The position numbers were made by a program, and so were the translations under genes. The notes below the pieces were generated by a model. The model made no database searches. It was not told the DNA's origin and saw only the letters and a program-made list of their open reading frames with translations. From assembly GCF_030013205.1 (NCBI RefSeq), contig NZ_CP122648.1: 64,000 nucleotides of DNA. One strand, written 5' to 3'. Of the stretch, positions 29,418 to 53,276 are shown piece by piece; the stretch's first letter is position 1, and the number at the start of each line of letters is the position of its first letter. This stretch comes from Escherichia coli. Its GTDB lineage: Bacteria > Pseudomonadota > Gammaproteobacteria > Enterobacterales > Enterobacteriaceae.

Positions 29418-29969
29418 ATGCATGACAATATTTGGTTTACATATAAAGCCCGTATCCAAGCGCACCATCGACTAGAATGGCTTGAAAAGCACTCTCAATT
29501 TATCCTCGTTTGGTATGCTATATTGAGTGCGGTACTTTCAATTGTAACGTTGCGATTTCCAAAAGTTCTAGGAGATAACACAGATATCGTTGCGGCAATA
29601 CTTTCGGTGGCCCTACTGGGTATTTCGCTGATCGTATCTAACCTAGATTTTCGTGGTCGAGCAATAGCCATGAGAAGGAATTATATTGCACTACAGCGAC
29701 TCTATTTTGACATTACCACCAGTCAACAGTTAACTCTTGAACAGAAAGAAAAATATTTTAATTTGCTCAATGAGGTTGAGAATCACCGTGACATAGATGA
29801 TAAAATTTCAAGGGTAACTCAAGTTGGACTTACGACGAGGATCCCCACACAAAAAGAAAAAATAATTGTTATTTTATGGATATTACTTCGAATATTTACT
29901 ACTGCCGCCCTTTATATACTCCCATTAATATATCTTTGGATTGACTATGACTGCAAGCAGAATTTTTAA
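29418..29969 (+). CDS. SLATT-like 2TM (+1 C-terminal TM) membrane effector candidate
   Basis: 183 aa. An N-terminal amphipathic helix (IWFTYKARIQAHHRLEWLEK) is followed by TM hairpin FILVWYAILSAVLSIVTL / IVAAILSVALLGISLIVSNL, a helical middle and a C-terminal TM IIVILWILLRIFTTAALYILPLIYLWI. RBS AAGGA upstream. The 3' end overlaps the RT start. Confidence 0.6.
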   Translation: MHDNIWFTYKARIQAHHRLEWLEKHSQFILVWYAILSAVLSIVTLRFPKVLGDNTDIVAAILSVALLGISLIVSNLDFRGRAIAMRRNYIALQRLYFDITTSQQLTLEQKEKYFNLLNEVENHRDIDDKISRVTQVGLTTRIPTQKEKIIVILWILLRIFTTAALYILPLIYLWIDYDCKQNF

Positions 29970-31317
29970 AAAGTCATTCTCGAAAAAAAACCTTCTAAAA
30001 GTATACACTGAAAAAATCAAAGAATCAGGAGCGATTGGCATAGATCGGATTCGCCCATCAAAACTTGATTTGACAATAAAAAATGAGATCGCTTTCATTT
30101 TTGAAAAGGTTAACTCTGGCAATTACAAATTTACAGCATATAAAGAAAAATTAATATCTAAAGGCGCTAACTCTACACCCAGACAGATTTCCATACCAAC
30201 TGCTAGGGACAGAATTACTCTTAGAGCTCTCTGTGAATGCCTTACGGAAATATATCCTAACTCCAGATTAAAACTACCACATACAGTAATTGACTCATTG
30301 AAAGAAGCATTAAACAGCAGTCTTTATGCTGAATATGCAAAAATAGATCTTAAAAGTTTCTATCCTTCAATTGAACATAAATTGATAATTAATGCAATAA
30401 AAAATAAAATTAGAAAAAAAGAAATTAGACAGTTAATAACATCATCATTAATCGTGCCTACTGTAAGTGGAACAACAGGAAGCAAAGGTATCCCGAATAA
30501 TACCAGAGGAGTACCTCAGGGATTAGCGATATCAAACATTTTAGCTGAAATATCACTATCTAATTTTGATGATGAAATCAATAAAATGCATGACATATGG
30601 TACATGCGATACGTTGATGACATTCTTATTTTAACACCAAAATATCAAGCAACAAAAATAGCTTCTCATATCATTGATAAGCTTCAATCATTAAATTTAA
30701 ACCCACATCCATTAAATGAAGAGAACTCAAAATCCAAAGTAGGCAGCTTGGATGAAAGTTTTAACTTTTTGGGATACCACATAGAAAATCGAGAATTATT
30801 GATAAAACATGAGAGCATTCTTAGATTTGAGTCATCTTTAGCAAGGATTTTTACTGCATACAGGCACGCTCTACTACAAGCTAAAAGTAAGCGTGATAAA
30901 GAACGAGCTGTTGCATATTGTCAGTGGAAACTAAATCTCAGAATTACGGGATGTGTGTTTGAAGGTAAACGATTGGGATGGGTATCGTACTTCTCACAAA
31001 TAACCTCAACAGCTCAACTTCGCTCTGTTAATCATACTATCAATAATCTTATCCGCCGATTCGGCCTTTCATCAGAAATAAAACCAAAGTCTTTGATTAA
31101 AACTTTCTATGAACTCCGCAGAGGTAGAGCGGAGACTTTTAAATACATACCTAACTTTGATAATTTACATATATCTCAGAAACGAGAACTTGTTTCTATG
31201 TGGATAGGTAAAGAGAAGGAAAAAAAACTTAGCAATAGTGAAATAGAGAGGAAGTTTAAATTTAAAATTGCGAAATCAGTAAAAGAGCTTGAAGAGGATA
31301 TCTCAGGAATATCATAG
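29947..31317 (+). CDS. Reverse transcriptase (non-retron, group-II-intron-like / UG-DRT-like)
   Basis: Motifs RQISIPTARDR, AKIDLKSFYPSI, RGVPQGLAISNILAEI, YMRYVDDILIL (YVDD at 30610-30621), FNFLGYHI and a maturase-like LGWVSYFSQ. ATG at 29947 (TTG at 29941 is also possible). Confidence 0.9.
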   Translation: MTASRIFKKSFSKKNLLKVYTEKIKESGAIGIDRIRPSKLDLTIKNEIAFIFEKVNSGNYKFTAYKEKLISKGANSTPRQISIPTARDRITLRALCECLTEIYPNSRLKLPHTVIDSLKEALNSSLYAEYAKIDLKSFYPSIEHKLIINAIKNKIRKKEIRQLITSSLIVPTVSGTTGSKGIPNNTRGVPQGLAISNILAEISLSNFDDEINKMHDIWYMRYVDDILILTPKYQATKIASHIIDKLQSLNLNPHPLNEENSKSKVGSLDESFNFLGYHIENRELLIKHESILRFESSLARIFTAYRHALLQAKSKRDKERAVAYCQWKLNLRITGCVFEGKRLGWVSYFSQITSTAQLRSVNHTINNLIRRFGLSSEIKPKSLIKTFYELRRGRAETFKYIPNFDNLHISQKRELVSMWIGKEKEKKLSNSEIERKFKFKIAKSVKELEEDISGIS

Positions 31318-40253: not shown

Positions 40254-40328
<75 letters not shown>

Positions 40329-40745: not shown

Positions 40746-41596
40746 TTATTCTTGAGCGGAGCCAGAACTCATCTCACTGAATGCAGCCATCCTGTAACCT
40801 TCCGGGGTGACCCCAAAATAACGCCTGAATACACTGATAAAATAAGATGTATTATTATAGCCACACTGCACAGCGATTCTGTTGATGGCACAGCTATATT
40901 GATGCAACAGCATTGCTGCCATTCTCATTCTCTCCGTAAGCAACAACTCACTGAAACATGTGCCTTCTTCTTTCAGTCTTTTTTTAACAAACTTTCACTC
41001 ATACATAACCGTGATGACACATCTCGCAGAGTCCAGTTTGCTGCAATGTCTGTATGAAACAACGCACCAAGCCTGCCGCTGATAGTACTGATACACGCGG
41101 TCATAAACGACGAAAACATTTTATCTGATGAAAAAAACGCCAGACACGAAAAGGAAAGCATTTCCGCTAAATTGTCCGTATGAATCTTTTCCTCATAAAG
41201 ATAATCAATCAGGATGCCCATCAATTCTGGCCTGGGAAAACTCATGCAAAGATATCGTGGCATTTTCCGGACTAAAACAACATCCTGTTTTACCCCACTA
41301 CGCAACAGGTAACGGCTAATTGTCGATTCACTGAGACTTATACGCCGAAAACATTCAGAAAAGGGCAATAACGGTCCAGCCCCTCCCCTGACAAGAAGTG
41401 CACTACCACTTTCCAGAGAGAGTACTTTTCCTTCGAAGAGCACAACAAACGGGGAATGAACAAAAATAACAGAACAGGCCTCATTCATATCAATATCCCT
41501 GACATTACTGGTCGCAAGATAAGTATATATCACTTTACAAAAATGCAAGCCGTGAGCCCCGAATTCACGACCACCAGCGTGTTTACTGTACTGCAC
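40746..41596 (-). pseudogene. AraC/XylS-family regulator (GadX/AppY-like) split by a frameshift in a homopolymer
   Basis: The 207-aa ORF ends ..CMSESLLKKD stop. The 66-aa ORF carries the second HTH (..INRIAVQCGYNNTSYFISVFRRYFGVTPEGYR). Adding one base to the T7 run at 40979-40985 restores ..SESLLKKRLKEEGTCFSELLLTERMRMAAMLL... Confidence 0.8.
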
Positions 41597-41767
41597 CAGG
41601 TTTACAGGTACAAAAAACCGCTCGACGGCGGGTTTAAGCTGTGTGGCGAAGTAACCACTCTTAACAGATTAAGATAAAATTTGCGGACCGCGGTAATTTT
41701 TTTTGCTAAATTAAAGCCATATAAAAAATAAGATCCATAAGAAATTATTAGTATACTAAGGTTTAAC

Positions 41768-42709
41768 ATGGCTACTATTGCGCAATCAAAGAAACAAAAA
41801 AAACTTAAAATTGGTTTTTACACCAGCAGTTCTGGGACTATCCGCAGCCATTCAGTTGCTAAGCAAGCAATTGAAAATCTGTATAATACTTGCGTAACCG
41901 TTACGAATAATCATTTTGATACCATCTATAGAAATAAAAAGTTAAAAATAGCTTTTATAAATAAAGATACAAAAGCTAAATATTTCTTCGGCTACATGTC
42001 ATGCTCACGAGAAGAGTATCTCCTTCCTTATATTGGTGATGAACACTGGAATGAGCACAACATACCACTAGATGATAAAAAATACATAGTCGAAAGAACC
42101 TATTTTTTATATTATTACGATAGTGATATTTTAATATTAACTCAAAATCATCTTGGGCCGAAAGAATCGGATTTAGCTTATCTGCTTTACAGCCAGAGTG
42201 GTAATCCTGGAAATAACTTTTCATTCCAAGCCATCTGGAAAAAAGAGAGCGTCAAAGAGCTACTTGAAACAGGAAGTACTTTGAGAAGTTGTGATATTGT
42301 CCTGGCTGCTCCCAGGAACTTTGATGCAACAAATTACCAGCTAAATAGTTCATTTTCTAAGGAACTGGTAAATATGATGGTAGGGCTGGGTGGAACACGT
42401 CTCAAGTTAAATCTAAGGGGACGTGCATCAGGGAGAGTAAAAGTCAAAGGTTATTTATCAGATCTCGTTAAGGATGGTATTAAAGAACTCCTTGAAAAAA
42501 TGCCGGGAATTGTAAAAAAAGCGGCAGTAACACAGCCCAAAAATACCGTTGAACAAAGTCTTCTTGATCAGGTACTCATTTCAGAAAAAAACATATATAC
42601 CGTTAATGGTTATGGCACTGATAGTGATGTTCTGCAAGCCATGATTTCTGCTAAAATTGATAACAATGAATACCTTAAGCAATACGATATCAGCAAAAAG
42701 AAGGTATAG
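41768..42709 (+). CDS. Orphan 313-aa cytoplasmic protein, first gene of a candidate two-gene defence cassette
   Basis: AT-rich ORF on the strand opposite to all neighbouring phage genes. I could recognise no catalytic motif. 3 nt separate it from the downstream membrane gene. Confidence 0.7.
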   Translation: MATIAQSKKQKKLKIGFYTSSSGTIRSHSVAKQAIENLYNTCVTVTNNHFDTIYRNKKLKIAFINKDTKAKYFFGYMSCSREEYLLPYIGDEHWNEHNIPLDDKKYIVERTYFLYYYDSDILILTQNHLGPKESDLAYLLYSQSGNPGNNFSFQAIWKKESVKELLETGSTLRSCDIVLAAPRNFDATNYQLNSSFSKELVNMMVGLGGTRLKLNLRGRASGRVKVKGYLSDLVKDGIKELLEKMPGIVKKAAVTQPKNTVEQSLLDQVLISEKNIYTVNGYGTDSDVLQAMISAKIDNNEYLKQYDISKKKV

Positions 42710-42712
42710 GAT

Positions 42713-43156
42713 ATGTTATTGAAATACTTAAGAAACCTGATTGTAAGTGTTTTTTGCACCTTGTTCCTACTGAGGTATATCCCTCAGATGGGGCATGCTG
42801 ACATACTTACAGCCTCCGGGGTTATTTCAACTGTATCCGGTATTTTATTTGGTTTTATTTTAGCCACAATATCAATTTTTAGTGCTGCTAGCGAAAACTC
42901 AAATGGAATAATAAAAGCATTAAAAAACAACAACATACTTCAAGTTATTATTGTAAATCTATTAACCGCAGGTGCATCTTTAATTACGGCATGCGTTATT
43001 GCTTTGATAGCAATGTTTGCCAATGAAAAGACATTGTTACATGGAGAAAAAATAGAATTTATTTTAATTATCGAATCTTTATCTCTTCTTATCATTTCAG
43101 TAATAACTTTTGCCTTTACATGGAGAAAAGTAAACTGGATACTCCCCCACATTTAA
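42713..43156 (+). CDS. Orphan 147-aa 4-TM membrane protein, second gene of the cassette
   Basis: Four hydrophobic helices (LIVSVFCTLFLL, VISTVSGILFGFILATISIFSAA, VIIVNLLTAGASLITACVIALIAMFA, FILIIESLSLLIISVITFAFTW). Confidence 0.7.
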   Translation: MLLKYLRNLIVSVFCTLFLLRYIPQMGHADILTASGVISTVSGILFGFILATISIFSAASENSNGIIKALKNNNILQVIIVNLLTAGASLITACVIALIAMFANEKTLLHGEKIEFILIIESLSLLIISVITFAFTWRKVNWILPHI

Positions 43157-49834: not shown

Positions 49835-50029
49835 ATGAACAACTTAATGACAACTAAACAGGTCGCCGACTTCTGTGGTGTTTCAATATCAACAGTGCTT
49901 CGCTGGAACAGCATAAACCATAGAACAGGTAAGAAATATAGACCAGACTTTCCTGATCCTGATATAAAATCCTGTCCCAATAAATGGGCATCACACAAGA
50001 TTTATAGGTTTGCGGGTATTATCGAATAA
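49835..50029 (+). CDS. AlpA/excisionase-type small HTH protein
   Basis: GGAGG RBS then ATG at 49835, giving MNNLMTTKQVADFCGVSISTVLRWNS.. (64 aa). This is the MerR-like HTH typical of Xis/AlpA. Confidence 0.65.
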   Translation: MNNLMTTKQVADFCGVSISTVLRWNSINHRTGKKYRPDFPDPDIKSCPNKWASHKIYRFAGIIE

Positions 50030-50761
50030 CATTTATTTGTTTCGATGTTAGCTGACACATCTATGGCACAGAGCAAAACCGAATATGATTGTCCACTCTG
50101 TGCTAGTAGAAAACATAGATATCAACTATCCGTACCAATCTGTGAGTATAGAATAAATTAATCTGCTCGCAACTAATAGCCTCTAACAGCCAATACAGTG
50201 CCACCGATGATACAAAAAACAATACTCCAAAAAGCGTCTGGTATTGGATTGTCATTACTAGCTTCCGAGGTGAGATATGCATTAAGCCAGGTGCGCTGGA
50301 AAAGTTATGTTTCCCTAATGGAATTGCCCATGACTCAACATATTTTTTCTCTGTTGCTAGCGAATAGACCTAAAATGATAAGCACCATTAACATCAACAG
50401 CGCCCCCTTGAGCTCTTCTTTTCGGTGAAAAGCCCATCATCAACGGCGCATTGCCTAACCCGAATTCTAGCCACCTTAGCCAGTATTTACCCCCTAGATA
50501 CCAAATGCTTACCCCTCTATTTGCTCTGATAATACTTTATTGCATAATCCCTCACTACATTAGACACTGCGTCAATCCTGCCTTCTATAGCTTGTTTTAA
50601 CGCTTTCGGCACATTCCTCTGAACCAGCCCAAGATATGGCTGTTAAATTTTTACTTACATTCAAAAAAACTTTAACTTTTGCAATCAGATCATATGATGT
50701 TGTTAATGGTAATATTCTGAATCTAAAATGACTTAAGAGTTCGTAGGTTAGAGGGACATGT

Positions 50762-51781
50762 ATGACTTCTGAAAGCAACAGAATTGGGAAGATGGGTGTA
50801 AACTACATAGAAGGTGTATTGACAAGATGGGGATGGGGATATCAATCAATTTCGCAAGAAAATGATGATGGGTTTGATGGCTTAATATATATAAGATCTA
50901 AACGATTTGAGGCGAAAGATAAAGAAAACCGGAGTAAACAATCTTGGGAGTTCACTGGTGGGTTGATTCATGTACAAGTAAAAAGTGGAGATACATACAT
51001 TAGTAGTCGTAATAAAGATGAAATAAGGATCAAAATAAAAAACCTCAATGAAAAGAAGAAAATATGGTCTAGATCGTCTATTCTATGCATACTTGTATTT
51101 GTTTTTTGGGATCATAATGAAGTTGAGTATTCCTACTGGGCTGATCTTAAATCTGAATTAACTTATTGTGATAACAGTAGTACGCTAATAAAAATCCCCT
51201 TAAAAAATAGATTTATGAGATCCCAAGAGTGTAAGGGGCCTTTAAGACGACTTGCAAGGGTATCGGCCAACTATGCAGATAAGCCGCTGATAGATTTATC
51301 AAAATTTGACTCATTAAGTGGTAAGCTACCTACAAGTCTAAACAGTAACCTAAATTGTTCTTTGAAAAAGAAAGGTATTGAATTCTATCAGAAATGGCGA
51401 TTAATTGGGGCTACAAACCCTTATTTTGGTCCTGTTCTAATAAACAGAACTGGTTGGAGTCATATAACTCGACGAAATCGCCCAATAGCAAGAATTGAAG
51501 CAAGCTTTAATTTGTTACCTTTAGCAGCAAGAATTATAAATGATGTATCTACATGGCGAATGTTAACACCCGTACGACGGTATGATAATAGAAAGGATGG
51601 TTATGTTTGCTTTATAGATTTCGTTGGGTTAACAGCCAAAGTGAATTTAAAGAATCGCAACTCATCAGAAGTTATGGTTGTGTTAAAAAGGGAGAGGAGG
51701 TATAAACAGGGTGAAGACTGTTCCTCTGCGAAAACAAGATTATGGTTTTACACTGTTTATGAACCTGGAAGAGGAAAATAA
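50762..51781 (+). CDS. DUF4365-like (PD-(D/E)xK nuclease fold) N-terminal domain protein with unknown C-terminal domain
   Basis: 339 aa and AT-rich. The N-terminus ..IGKMGVNYIEGVLTRWGWGYQSISQENDDGFDGLIYI..(27 aa)..GGLIHVQVKSGDTYI fits the G..E....GW.....DDG.DG....VQVKS pattern. Confidence 0.6.
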   Translation: MTSESNRIGKMGVNYIEGVLTRWGWGYQSISQENDDGFDGLIYIRSKRFEAKDKENRSKQSWEFTGGLIHVQVKSGDTYISSRNKDEIRIKIKNLNEKKKIWSRSSILCILVFVFWDHNEVEYSYWADLKSELTYCDNSSTLIKIPLKNRFMRSQECKGPLRRLARVSANYADKPLIDLSKFDSLSGKLPTSLNSNLNCSLKKKGIEFYQKWRLIGATNPYFGPVLINRTGWSHITRRNRPIARIEASFNLLPLAARIINDVSTWRMLTPVRRYDNRKDGYVCFIDFVGLTAKVNLKNRNSSEVMVVLKRERRYKQGEDCSSAKTRLWFYTVYEPGRGK

Positions 51782-52052
51782 ATTGAGGCGGTACAATCGC
51801 GCTCAGGCTGTCCCAGACGTGATGCATAACACCACCGGTTCCAGAATTTAAGGATCTGGACCTTCAATTATGCGTGTACCGCCTTATGCAACAATACTAT
51901 AAAATTATTAAACGTCAAGATGTTCAATAAGATTTGGGCTTTCATGCCACAACACGAAAGTTCATTTTATAACGTCTAAAGCTTTCACAATGTCCGCTTT
52001 TCGCAGCTCAAAGCGGACAGTCATATTTGATTGTATTCTGGCTACTGGAGCC

Positions 52053-53276
52053 TCAGTTAGAGTCTGAGATAGTACAAGTAATGATCGATTCAACTCTCTC
52101 CCACCATGCCTGGTAGGCTTTACGCTGTTCTTCTAGATAATCGCTCTTATCATAAACTTGCCATACCCCTGGCAGTTTATGGCCGAGCATTATTTCTGCA
52201 ATATGAGGCGCAGTAAGATCAGAAAAGTTTGTTCGTGCTGTTCGCCTCAAATCATGAAGAGACCAATGAGGGAATTGATACCCCAAACGCCGCCATGCGT
52301 ACTGCATTAAATTGTAAGGCAGCGACTGCAATGATGTTCGTCCAACGGGTTCCCTGCTTCCTTCCTTAGTAAAAAGCATATCGGAACCATTGTTCATAGA
52401 GATAACGTACTTTATAAGCTCTTCAACCGGTTCAATAATGGGGCGCTTTAGCGGTTCGCCTGTTATATCCCCTGTCTTATGTCGTTCTGGCGGTACAGTC
52501 CATACCTTATTAATGAAATCAAAATCATCCACCCTAGCGGTAATTAGCTCTGAACTACGGCAGCCAAAATGCAGCAATAGTTTAATGAAGGCCCGGTATT
52601 TAGGAACCATTCGAGAACCATCGATCGCAGCATAAAGGATTTTAATTTCATCATGTGTCAGAAACCGTTTCTTCTGACCTTTACGGATATCCATATCTTT
52701 ACCCGTGATATCCGACAGCGGGCGGGTTTCAATGAGCTTTCTCTTATAGGCCCAGACATGGGCCTGCTTTGCGTTAATTAGCAATCGGTCTGCTATTGCT
52801 GGAGTCTTAGTGCTAAGAGGCTCTAAGACTTCTAACCAATCATGCAATGTAGCTGCATCGTGAGGGATACTCCCGATTTTAGAGAACAGGTGCAGCTCAA
52901 ACGAGCGGAGTATCTGTTCAGAACCTTTTTTATTTTTTACACAATATGCTTCATACCAGGCACGGATCACAGACTCTACCGTCATGGCTTCAGTAGCTTT
53001 TCGTTTTTCAGCCTGCTTGACCAATCGTGGATTACGGTTTGACTCGAGTTCACCACGAAGACGGAGAACTTCTTCTCTGGCCTCTTTTAATCCAGTTGCC
53101 GGGTAAGTTCCGATATCAAGACGCTCACCTTTCCCTGCCCATTGATAACGATATTGGAACACTACGCGACCTTTCGGTGATACTCTGACAGACAGACCAT
53201 CACGATCGGATTTAACCAAAACCTTATCACGTTCCTTTCCAACGACTGAACGCAACCACGCATCAGACAGCGCCAT
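52053..53276 (-). CDS. int: Tyrosine integrase, P4-type (DUF4102 N-terminal arm-binding domain)
   Basis: 407 aa, MALSDAWLRSVVGKERDKVLVKSDRDGLSVRVSPKGRVVFQYRYQWAGK..DIGTYPATGLKEAREE... The catalytic ..HDLRRTARTNF..MLGHK..VYDKSDY has R, HxxR and Y. Confidence 0.92.
   Translation of the reverse strand: MALSDAWLRSVVGKERDKVLVKSDRDGLSVRVSPKGRVVFQYRYQWAGKGERLDIGTYPATGLKEAREEVLRLRGELESNRNPRLVKQAEKRKATEAMTVESVIRAWYEAYCVKNKKGSEQILRSFELHLFSKIGSIPHDAATLHDWLEVLEPLSTKTPAIADRLLINAKQAHVWAYKRKLIETRPLSDITGKDMDIRKGQKKRFLTHDEIKILYAAIDGSRMVPKYRAFIKLLLHFGCRSSELITARVDDFDFINKVWTVPPERHKTGDITGEPLKRPIIEPVEELIKYVISMNNGSDMLFTKEGSREPVGRTSLQSLPYNLMQYAWRRLGYQFPHWSLHDLRRTARTNFSDLTAPHIAEIMLGHKLPGVWQVYDKSDYLEEQRKAYQAWWERVESIITCTISDSN

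Follow-up and report, generated by a model that had tools for sequence, protein, structure and literature searches.

A 64,000-nucleotide stretch of Escherichia coli DNA (NCBI RefSeq assembly GCF_030013205.1, contig NZ_CP122648.1), referred to here as the window, carries a gene for a 339-residue protein. The gene belongs to a degraded lambdoid prophage integrated next to yjjG, and lies at the end of this prophage that encodes the integrase. The protein consists of a DUF4365 nuclease domain, a linker and a basic C-terminal domain (CTD), and its gene is followed directly by a conserved structured element. The original prediction, made from the letters of the window, presented the gene as a single, stand-alone candidate for defence or exclusion. 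We find what appears to be a conserved, previously unannotated structured small RNA (sRNA) gene coupled to the DUF4365-CTD protein and to its TIR, SIR2 and CHAT relatives, and suggest that protein and RNA may together form a toxin module with an RNA antitoxin. The features of this module in the window are listed below.

50762..51781, plus strand: coding sequence of the nuclease-CTD protein, from ATG to stop, 339 amino acids (RefSeq WP_063118504.1, 'DUF4365 domain-containing protein')
50789..51220, plus strand: DUF4365 / PD-(D/E)xK nuclease domain, residues 10-153
51362..51778, plus strand: CTD, residues ~201-339 (profile built on residues 155-339; pI 10.4)
51787..51883, minus strand: conserved structured non-coding element, 97 nt (covariance model, covariation and cross-genus nucleotide homology)
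51891..51918, minus strand: sigma-70-type promoter of the predicted minus-strand RNA (-35 TTGACG at 51918-51913, -10 TATTGT at 51896-51891)
51768..51786, minus strand: U-rich tail UCAAUUUAUUUUCCUCUUC, overlapping the stop codon and the last Lys/Arg-rich codons, the proposed terminator tail of the sRNA

Comparison of the window with the corresponding loci of Yersinia, Acinetobacter and Enterobacter reveals nucleotide homology that runs from the ATG to 125-145 nt past the stop codon, and the flank past the stop codon is better conserved than the coding sequence itself. This flank folds into an element in which a long closing stem, P1 (GGCGGUAC..CGCGC / GCGUGUACCGCC), surrounds a small invariant hairpin and two variable hairpins, and in which the unpaired junction sequences (CUCUCAGACUGAUCCAGAC, CCGGC and ACUCUCUAUUGUG) show higher conservation than the stems. 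A clade of homologues of 40% protein identity has this architecture after the stop codon too, with different stems but conserved junctions (CTCTCAGACTGATCCAGAC, CCGGC and ACTCTCTATTGTG). A covariance model, R1, was built from ten of these sequences and matches once at each of 21 distinct proteobacterial or acidobacterial loci, invariably just behind the gene, the match in the window being at 51781-51887 with 50.9 bits; the element was modelled with covariation in these loci and read from stems and motifs elsewhere. In the R1 alignment, 94% of the cells are paired and double changes are present in 20 of the 30 pairs (82 cells), pairing figures that carry the caveat that the alignment was fitted to the model. 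None of 500 shuffles reached the observed covariation, slid registers pair only 24-53% of cells, and the element of the window has a folding z-score of -4.5. When metagenomes were scanned for the 19-mer core of the element, the eight true copies were all preceded by a coding end of the form ...WFY[ST]VYEPGR, and the other 18 matches, which lack P1, are chance matches. In E. coli the element is present once in each of the same 21 genomes as the gene and is annotated in none of them, and Rfam returned nothing relevant for the window element at E ≤ 10 or for the elements of two further loci (L006 and L028) at E ≤ 1.

Several other identities for the element could be set aside. A small protein encoded on the minus strand (an E. 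coli open reading frame, ORF, at 51672-51827) was rejected as the ORF is absent in L002, L012, L015, L016 and L018, and it follows from this absence that the element is non-coding. The element is not an attC site of an integron cassette, as it lacks RYYYAAC/GTTRRRY ends and has three inner helices, and it is not a tRNA or tmRNA, as ARAGORN calls nothing there.

The strand of the element was read from promoters and U-tails, since its base-pair counts are uninformative in this respect. On the minus strand, a TANNNT motif lies 8-10 nt before P1 in 19 of the 21 loci. In 13 loci this motif is preceded by TG, forming an extended -10 element, and all of these are without a -35 box. In the E. coli-type clade, TA replaces the TG and a TTGAC -35 box lies 16 nt upstream (TTGACA in L002, L011 and L012, TTGACG in the window and TTGACT in L007); in the window, the -10 TATTGT is 8 nt upstream of P1 and is separated from the TTGACG by a 16-nt spacer. 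All seven Bacteroidota loci have TAnnTT[TA]G at the equivalent position, a TAnnTTTG-type motif that we take to be the Bacteroidetes -7 promoter consensus. At most loci the minus strand continues from P1 into a U-rich tail, such as U7 at L028 and U6 at L068, and the plus strand has no U-tract after P1. The U-tract is templated by the stop codon and the A-rich Lys/Arg codons of a variable protein tail after YEPGR (51750-51781 in the window, with equivalents in L006, L014, L016, L028 and L068), and the C-terminal tail of the protein and the terminator of the RNA may constrain each other. Because these minus-strand promoters and U-tails are conserved, we infer that the element is an independent sRNA gene of ~110-120 nt, which would be transcribed on the minus strand from ~51885 to ~51770, in the direction of the nuclease gene, and would be antisense to the mRNA of that gene at its 3' end; the 3' untranslated region of the mRNA would carry the complementary structure. 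The element co-occurs strictly with the gene wherever the flank is readable, and with a structured non-coding element and its own convergent promoter following the gene at all such loci, the description of the gene as single or stand-alone is not supported.

An alternative view of the same flank is that the protein is a stand-alone, single-protein defence or exclusion nuclease whose CTD senses phage, and that the 3' element is a moron terminator, an insulator or an mRNA stabiliser. P1 with its U-tract does resemble a terminator for antisense read-through, morons commonly bring their own terminator, and single-protein DUF4365 fusions can defend, as is the case with Divona (bioRxiv 10.1101/2024.07.02.601686). 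However, a terminator needs neither a conserved outward promoter with phylum-specific motifs nor two covarying inner hairpins and invariant junctions that are kept down to 40% protein identity, and the plus strand lacks the U-tract, so that we regard this explanation as quite unlikely.

The N-terminal region of the protein is matched by Pfam DUF4365 (PF14280) over residues 10-153 with 62.9 bits and an E-value of 4e-17 (gathering cut-off 24.3). Searches among 5.8 billion proteins found homologues in 98 clusters, nearly all of them 310-350 residues long and aligned over the full query, from Enterobacterales, Acinetobacter, Pseudomonas, Burkholderiales and others. D35, D36, G37, D39, Q72 and K74 are invariant in 38 homologues (33-79% identity), and among 102 distant relatives the conservation of D39 and K74 is 90% or higher. 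The DDGFDG and VQVK motifs of the window protein correspond to the DUF4365 signature DxGxD...QxK, and E4, D35/D36/D39, Q72 and K74 form a candidate active site. The N-domain has a restriction-endonuclease-like fold of the PD-(D/E)xK DNase type, and the nuclease head is, by prediction, an Mrr/Hjc-like DUF4365 DNase; for the window protein, a search of PDB sequences gave nothing meaningful, and NCBIfam and PHROGs gave no match. The nuclease head claimed by the original prediction is thus borne out by a significant fold match and by an active-site motif that is invariant among homologues, though the domain spans ~150 residues (10-153) and not the ~85 proposed. The DUF4365 domain of SPARDA is a non-specific, collateral DNase (PMC10810196, PMC12205087), and mutants of the DxGxD...QxK motif in the DUF4365 toxin EAT16 lose toxicity in E. 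coli (PMC11297309). Many homologues start with GTG or TTG, as do all nine loci inspected in the 40%-identity clade (L006 and L013-L020). In five of these nine loci a conserved TAGATTGC is present ~35 nt upstream of the gene and may be its own -10 box. The invariant N-terminus MTSESNR was considered as a sign of an RNA-level interaction between the 5' and 3' ends, and this was rejected as the synonymous sites vary freely.

A profile of the CTD (residues 155-339) searched against 1.84 billion cluster representatives found 284 proteins, and 102 relatives were sampled. In 94 of the 102 the CTD is joined to DUF4365; it is also found behind TIR, SIR2 and CHAT domains (three proteins each), and behind EAD11 plus DUF4365. 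The domain is characterized by the motifs NRTGW-S-H-ITR..RP, SF.LLP and WFY.VYEPGR, with W232 and H234, within NRTGW-x-H-ITR, being its most conserved residues, and it is strongly basic, with a median pI of 10.4 in the family (range 10.0-11.1) and values of 9.6-11.1 in the other architectures. The profile found no meaningful match among PDB sequences, nor does the domain match a fold of the PDB. The sole Pfam family that touches the CTD is LPD3 (PF18798), a domain of phage and plasmid polyvalent proteins without known function (PMC5512222), which gives weak matches in 24 of the 102 relatives over profile positions ~6-67; the best of these has E=2.8e-5, all fall below the gathering score (at most ~21 bits against a cut-off of 27 bits), and LPD3 does not match the window protein. 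The CTD is a distinct, conserved module, separate from the nuclease head and with swappable effector partners, which agrees with the earlier view of the tail as an unknown domain without recognised motifs. That it occurs behind several effector heads is what one would expect if it served them as a common regulatory or sensor module. In one locus (L066, 1-5287), the TIR-DUF4365-CTD gene is third in an apparent operon, after EAD8-STAND NTPase and nSTAND2-SIR2-TIR genes, and one SIR2-CTD gene stands alone between housekeeping genes.

The RNA also seems to accompany the CTD in several effector architectures. R1 gives no match at the Bacteroidota, Marinobacter, TIR, EAD11 or SIR2 loci, and these diverged loci were judged by closing stems, folding z-scores and promoter motifs, with the proviso that 8-bp stems with G-U pairs are expected there by chance; the evidence at these loci comes from fewer sequences and is statistically weaker. 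Long closing stems, which lie next to the stop codon or overlap it and fold with z-scores of -3 to -5, are present at L066 (TIR-DUF4365-CTD), at L068 and L069 (EAD11-DUF4365-CTD) and at the Marinobacter and Bacteroidota genes; in L066 a 116-nt stem-closed element begins 11 nt after the stop codon. Two SIR2-CTD loci without DUF4365, from different metagenomes, have a common conserved structured 3' flank and a minus-strand TTGACT, and at a third SIR2-CTD locus a P1-like stem could be made out by eye.

These observations bear on a different role for the RNA, as a bait or ligand of an immune sensor. The CTD would hold and monitor the sRNA, and a phage factor acting on the RNA, by cleavage, modification, displacement or pairing, would trigger the attached effector (DNase, SIR2, TIR or CHAT protease), by a logic like that of a retron, a guard-type or a fixed-guide system without reverse transcriptase (RT) or Argonaute. 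Junctions that are more conserved than stems point to specific recognition and not to antisense pairing only, the RNA follows a strongly basic CTD across effector types, and the effector set of DUF4365, TIR and SIR2 is that of RNA-guided short-Argonaute systems. Against this, no variable guide-like segment is evident, the cis-antisense layout would be superfluous for a pure bait, and few non-DUF4365 loci are covered. We consider it unlikely that the RNA acts in this way.

The genomic contexts of the family indicate that the module moves. A homologue from Yersinia enterocolitica (75% identical) is encoded on the strand opposite to its neighbours, by a lone gene between those for the Q antiterminator and the holin of a lambdoid prophage, and one from Enterobacter hormaechei (64% identical) lies alone between the tail genes S and V (gpS/gpV) of a P2-like prophage. 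A Pseudomonas homologue (41% identical) is present in a defence island, between an OLD-family ATPase/TOPRIM gene and a gene for a 1471-residue NOV_C protein. In three different prophage slots the same ~340-residue protein is encoded by an isolated insert on the opposite strand, and the integrase-proximal slot is one of at least three insertion contexts and not a property of the family. The earlier placement of the gene in an accessory slot is upheld in the sense that it is carried in moron slots and in a defence island, whereas the integrase-proximal position is not family-wide. The S-V slot is not the P2 hotspot of Rousset et al., which is the gpA-gpQ locus. DNA upstream of the ATG in the window is not shared with the Yersinia or Acinetobacter copies, and cross-genus homology begins exactly at the ATG. 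The 5' boundary of the module is ragged, with homology to L002 above the ATG extending over 209 nt in L012, 44 nt in L011, 14 nt in L007 and 1 nt in the window (L002 7792-8000, L012 9789-10000 and L011 5905-5947), and the 3' boundary of the mobile module always takes in the sRNA promoter. The nuclease-CTD gene fits a portable, self-contained cargo of morons or defence islands, as far as its sequence contexts indicate.

Such a module need not be anti-phage. It could be an addiction or stabilisation module for the prophage or island, or else the phage's own nuclease, used in host DNA degradation or recombination and silenced by antisense RNA in lysogeny. Maintenance systems were the first RNA-antitoxin modules to be found, the prophage that carries the gene has been kept in 21 genomes although it is degraded, and RalR/RalA is a DNase and sRNA pair in the cryptic prophage rac (PMC4041452). 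However, the module is also present at non-prophage chromosomal sites and in the defence island, its CTD is common to TIR, SIR2 and CHAT effectors and to STAND/EAD conflict systems, features that are typical of immunity rather than of phage replication, and a tblastn search of the protein against 50,697 deposited phage genomes found no homologue. Both forms of this explanation, maintenance and the phage's own nuclease, appear very unlikely.

Based on these features, we tentatively favour, with slightly less than even confidence, the hypothesis that the protein and its ~110-nt convergent sRNA are a portable two-part module that would work as an RNA-antitoxin toxin module for abortive infection or exclusion. 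The first part would be the DUF4365 DNase head joined to the very basic CTD, and the second the structured ~110-nt sRNA, whose convergent gene abuts, and would slightly overlap, the stop codon. In an uninfected lysogen the sRNA would keep the nuclease harmless, by pairing with the 3' end of the nuclease mRNA as in type I systems, by binding to the CTD as in type III systems, or by both. An incoming phage that halts host transcription, or that breaks down or changes host RNA, would bring about the loss of the sRNA, upon which the nuclease would degrade DNA and the infection would be aborted. The starting points are observed features, namely the nuclease motif, the CTD module, the structure, covariation and linkage of the RNA, its minus-strand promoter and U-tail, and the moron and defence-island contexts; from there, the RNA would be expressed, the nuclease would be toxic and neutralised by the RNA, and the nuclease-CTD module would plausibly defend against phage. 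Indirect support for reading it as a toxin-antitoxin (TA) or abortive-infection system comes from the roles of DUF4365 as collateral DNase of SPARDA and as toxin in EAT16, from the many homologues with GTG or TTG starts, from the moron and defence-island contexts, and from the effector partners of the CTD, which are those of abortive-infection systems. The observation made in the original prediction is confirmed and its interpretation is partly supported.

Several points weigh against this hypothesis. The multi-branched structure closed by P1 is atypical for an intrinsic terminator, the overlap of sRNA and mRNA is limited to the 3' end of the mRNA, and the base-pair counts (21 G-U cells versus 18 A-C cells) give no strand. 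The strongly conserved unpaired nucleotides are unnecessary for a pure antisense mechanism and, together with the link to the CTD, mean that the RNA might instead serve as bait, guard or ligand. The operon of L066 with its STAND and EAD genes may mean that the module is a downstream effector and not autonomous in some settings, the SIR2-CTD evidence consists of three loci, and the tblastn search found no homologue in deposited phage genomes. The copy in the window may itself be attenuated or impaired, as it has Leu at residue 108 (codon 51083-51085, SSILCIL), a near-invariant site at which more than 90% of homologues have Pro (SSIPCIL), and the upstream region that the Yersinia and Acinetobacter copies have in common has been replaced in it; other E. 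coli copies (IMG/VR contigs L036-L038) keep P108.

A broader view, possible but doubtful in our judgment, is that the CTD and the convergent structured sRNA are the conserved core of an unrecognised RNA-dependent immune family, in which the RNA would be a sensor, bait or switch and the N-terminal effector would be interchangeable. With the same doubt, its effectors would be the DUF4365 DNase, SIR2, TIR, the CHAT protease and the EAD adaptor to STAND NTPases. The family would span Proteobacteria, Bacteroidota and Acidobacteriota, and would be, to a similarly limited degree of belief, a counterpart of retrons and short Argonautes without reverse transcriptase or Argonaute.

The module has precedents in part among known systems. 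SPARDA, a short prokaryotic Argonaute (pAgo) with a DREN-APAZ partner in which DREN is DUF4365, has the same nuclease family (the PADLOC model Aga_REase matches residues 3-131 of the window protein with E=5e-7), and its DUF4365 DNase is unleashed by an RNA-dependent sensor (PMC10810196, PMC12205087). Short-pAgo partners also carry DUF4365 or TIR heads (PADLOC models Aga_REase and Aga_TIR), and SIR2-APAZ partners are reported as well. The window protein differs in having no APAZ, the Aga_REase match being confined to positions 6-113 of a profile of 429, and none of the E. coli, Yersinia, Enterobacter and Pseudomonas copies has an Argonaute gene nearby. Here, the partner domain is instead the ~140-residue basic CTD with a predicted dedicated structured RNA gene. 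The nearest functional precedent is Divona, a cassette of the V. cholerae chromosomal integron that is experimentally anti-phage and thus a validated single-protein DUF4365 system, with homologues reported in E. coli within 20 kb of integrases (bioRxiv 10.1101/2024.07.02.601686). Like the window protein, it combines in one polypeptide a DUF4365/Mrr-like nuclease at the N-terminus with another domain at the C-terminus, which in Divona is described as Crr6 (PF08847) and was compared here by that description. Crr6 has no match in the window protein or the 102 relatives at E ≤ 10, though the published assignment may use a more sensitive method; no Vibrio relatives of the family turned up, and the description of Divona does not mention an RNA partner. 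EAT16, a toxin of Photorhabdus associated with extracellular contractile injection systems (PMC11297309), has a DUF4365 head with DxGxD...QxK as in the window protein, and differs in being an injected toxin and not a prophage moron, with another C-terminal part and no RNA partner described.

With regard to its proposed RNA antitoxin, the module resembles type I TA pairs with nuclease toxins; a convergent promoter, a structured body and a U-tail overlapping the stop codon are predicted and conserved here, and may belong to an antisense small RNA gene that overlaps the toxin mRNA. The bsrG/SR4 and txpA/ratA pairs are prophage-borne, with a convergent sRNA that overlaps the toxin mRNA at its 3' end, the layout also suggested for the module, and SymE/SymR is a further type I system comparable to such nuclease-toxin or 3'-overlapping antisense pairs. 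RalR/RalA is likewise prophage-borne and of type I, with a DNase toxin, RalR, and a small RNA antitoxin (PMC4041452). Type I toxins, however, have tens to ~110 residues, usually fewer than 60, and are often membrane proteins, whereas the window protein is a soluble, two-domain protein of 339 residues; their RNAs also lack deep cross-phylum conservation and any link to a protein domain with swappable effectors. In the type III systems ToxIN and CptIN, a structured non-coding RNA is an obligatory partner of the effector in abortive infection, as would be the case here. Their RNAs are tandem repeats upstream of an endoRNase toxin, unlike the single-copy, convergent element downstream of the nuclease gene, and the N-domain is of the PD-(D/E)xK DNase type with no Kid-like RNase fold. 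Retrons combine one RNA-handling core with many alternative effectors, as the CTD module would, but no reverse transcriptase adjoins the gene, and a UG17-class RT 19 kb away in the same prophage is absent from the other loci of the family.

If the RNA does control or inform the nuclease, the outcome would be a compact system of one protein and one ~110-nt RNA that moves between unrelated temperate phages and chromosomal islands. Bacterial immunity would thereby gain both an RNA partner and an RNA-linked protein domain that are new to it, and the occurrence of the same domain behind four classic abortive-infection effectors would be explained. As annotation pipelines leave the element blank in all 21 carrier E. 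coli genomes, other 'single-gene' defence candidates are worth checking for conserved non-coding partners.

The surroundings of the module in the window include the following features.

50700..50729, plus strand: candidate promoter of the nuclease gene, TTGTTA-18-TAAAAT, a weak one with 9 of 12 matches
49835..50029, plus strand: short helix-turn-helix (HTH) ORF, the 'xis-like' gene of the original prediction, with sub-threshold HTH_17/MerR/HTH_23 matches only
52053..53276, minus strand: prophage tyrosine integrase adjoining yjjG (Phage_integrase, E=3e-17)

The AT-rich nature of the 339-residue ORF, its distance of 732 bp from the short HTH ORF upstream and its convergence with the tyrosine integrase were all as described earlier, as were the letters quoted from its translation; the G+C content is 34-37% for the ORF, 0.34-0.38 across 50750-52000, 0.42-0.47 in the neighbouring prophage DNA and 0.52-0.57 in the flanking chromosome. 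The label 'xis-like' could not be sustained, as the best matches of the HTH ORF (HTH_17/MerR, E ~1e-3) are sub-threshold, and the ORF is unannotated in RefSeq. Sites like the candidate promoter at 50700-50729 are no commoner than in shuffled sequence. The window is chromosomal. Of 5426 complete E. coli genomes, 21 contain the same 2.1 kb at 99% identity or more, and most of these are from porcine enterotoxigenic E. coli (ETEC). In four E. coli strains an IS3-family element lies upstream of the gene, in the region between the HTH ORF and the gene (window ~50030-50100; L073 359-1587), and leaves gene and RNA intact.

The same prophage encodes a 458-residue reverse transcriptase (29941-31317, plus strand), which is the UG17 RT mentioned above (PADLOC, E=6e-159 over the full profile) and adjoins tail-fibre genes, some ~19 kb away from the gene of the DUF4365 protein. 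Collinearity between the window and L001 (strain ETEC4067) is incomplete, the RT gene being offset by ~700 bp from the coordinates predicted by the match at 50 kb, which implies an indel between both strains somewhere in 31-50 kb. A second moron-like block (40973-43156) lies between the Q antiterminator and the lysis genes. None of its genes matches PADLOC; they comprise an AraC-type regulator on the minus strand, a DUF6731 protein (41768-42709) and a hypothetical protein of 147 residues (42713-43156). In the matching RefSeq record, a tRNA-Gly gene (40254-40328) and IS200C adjoin this block.

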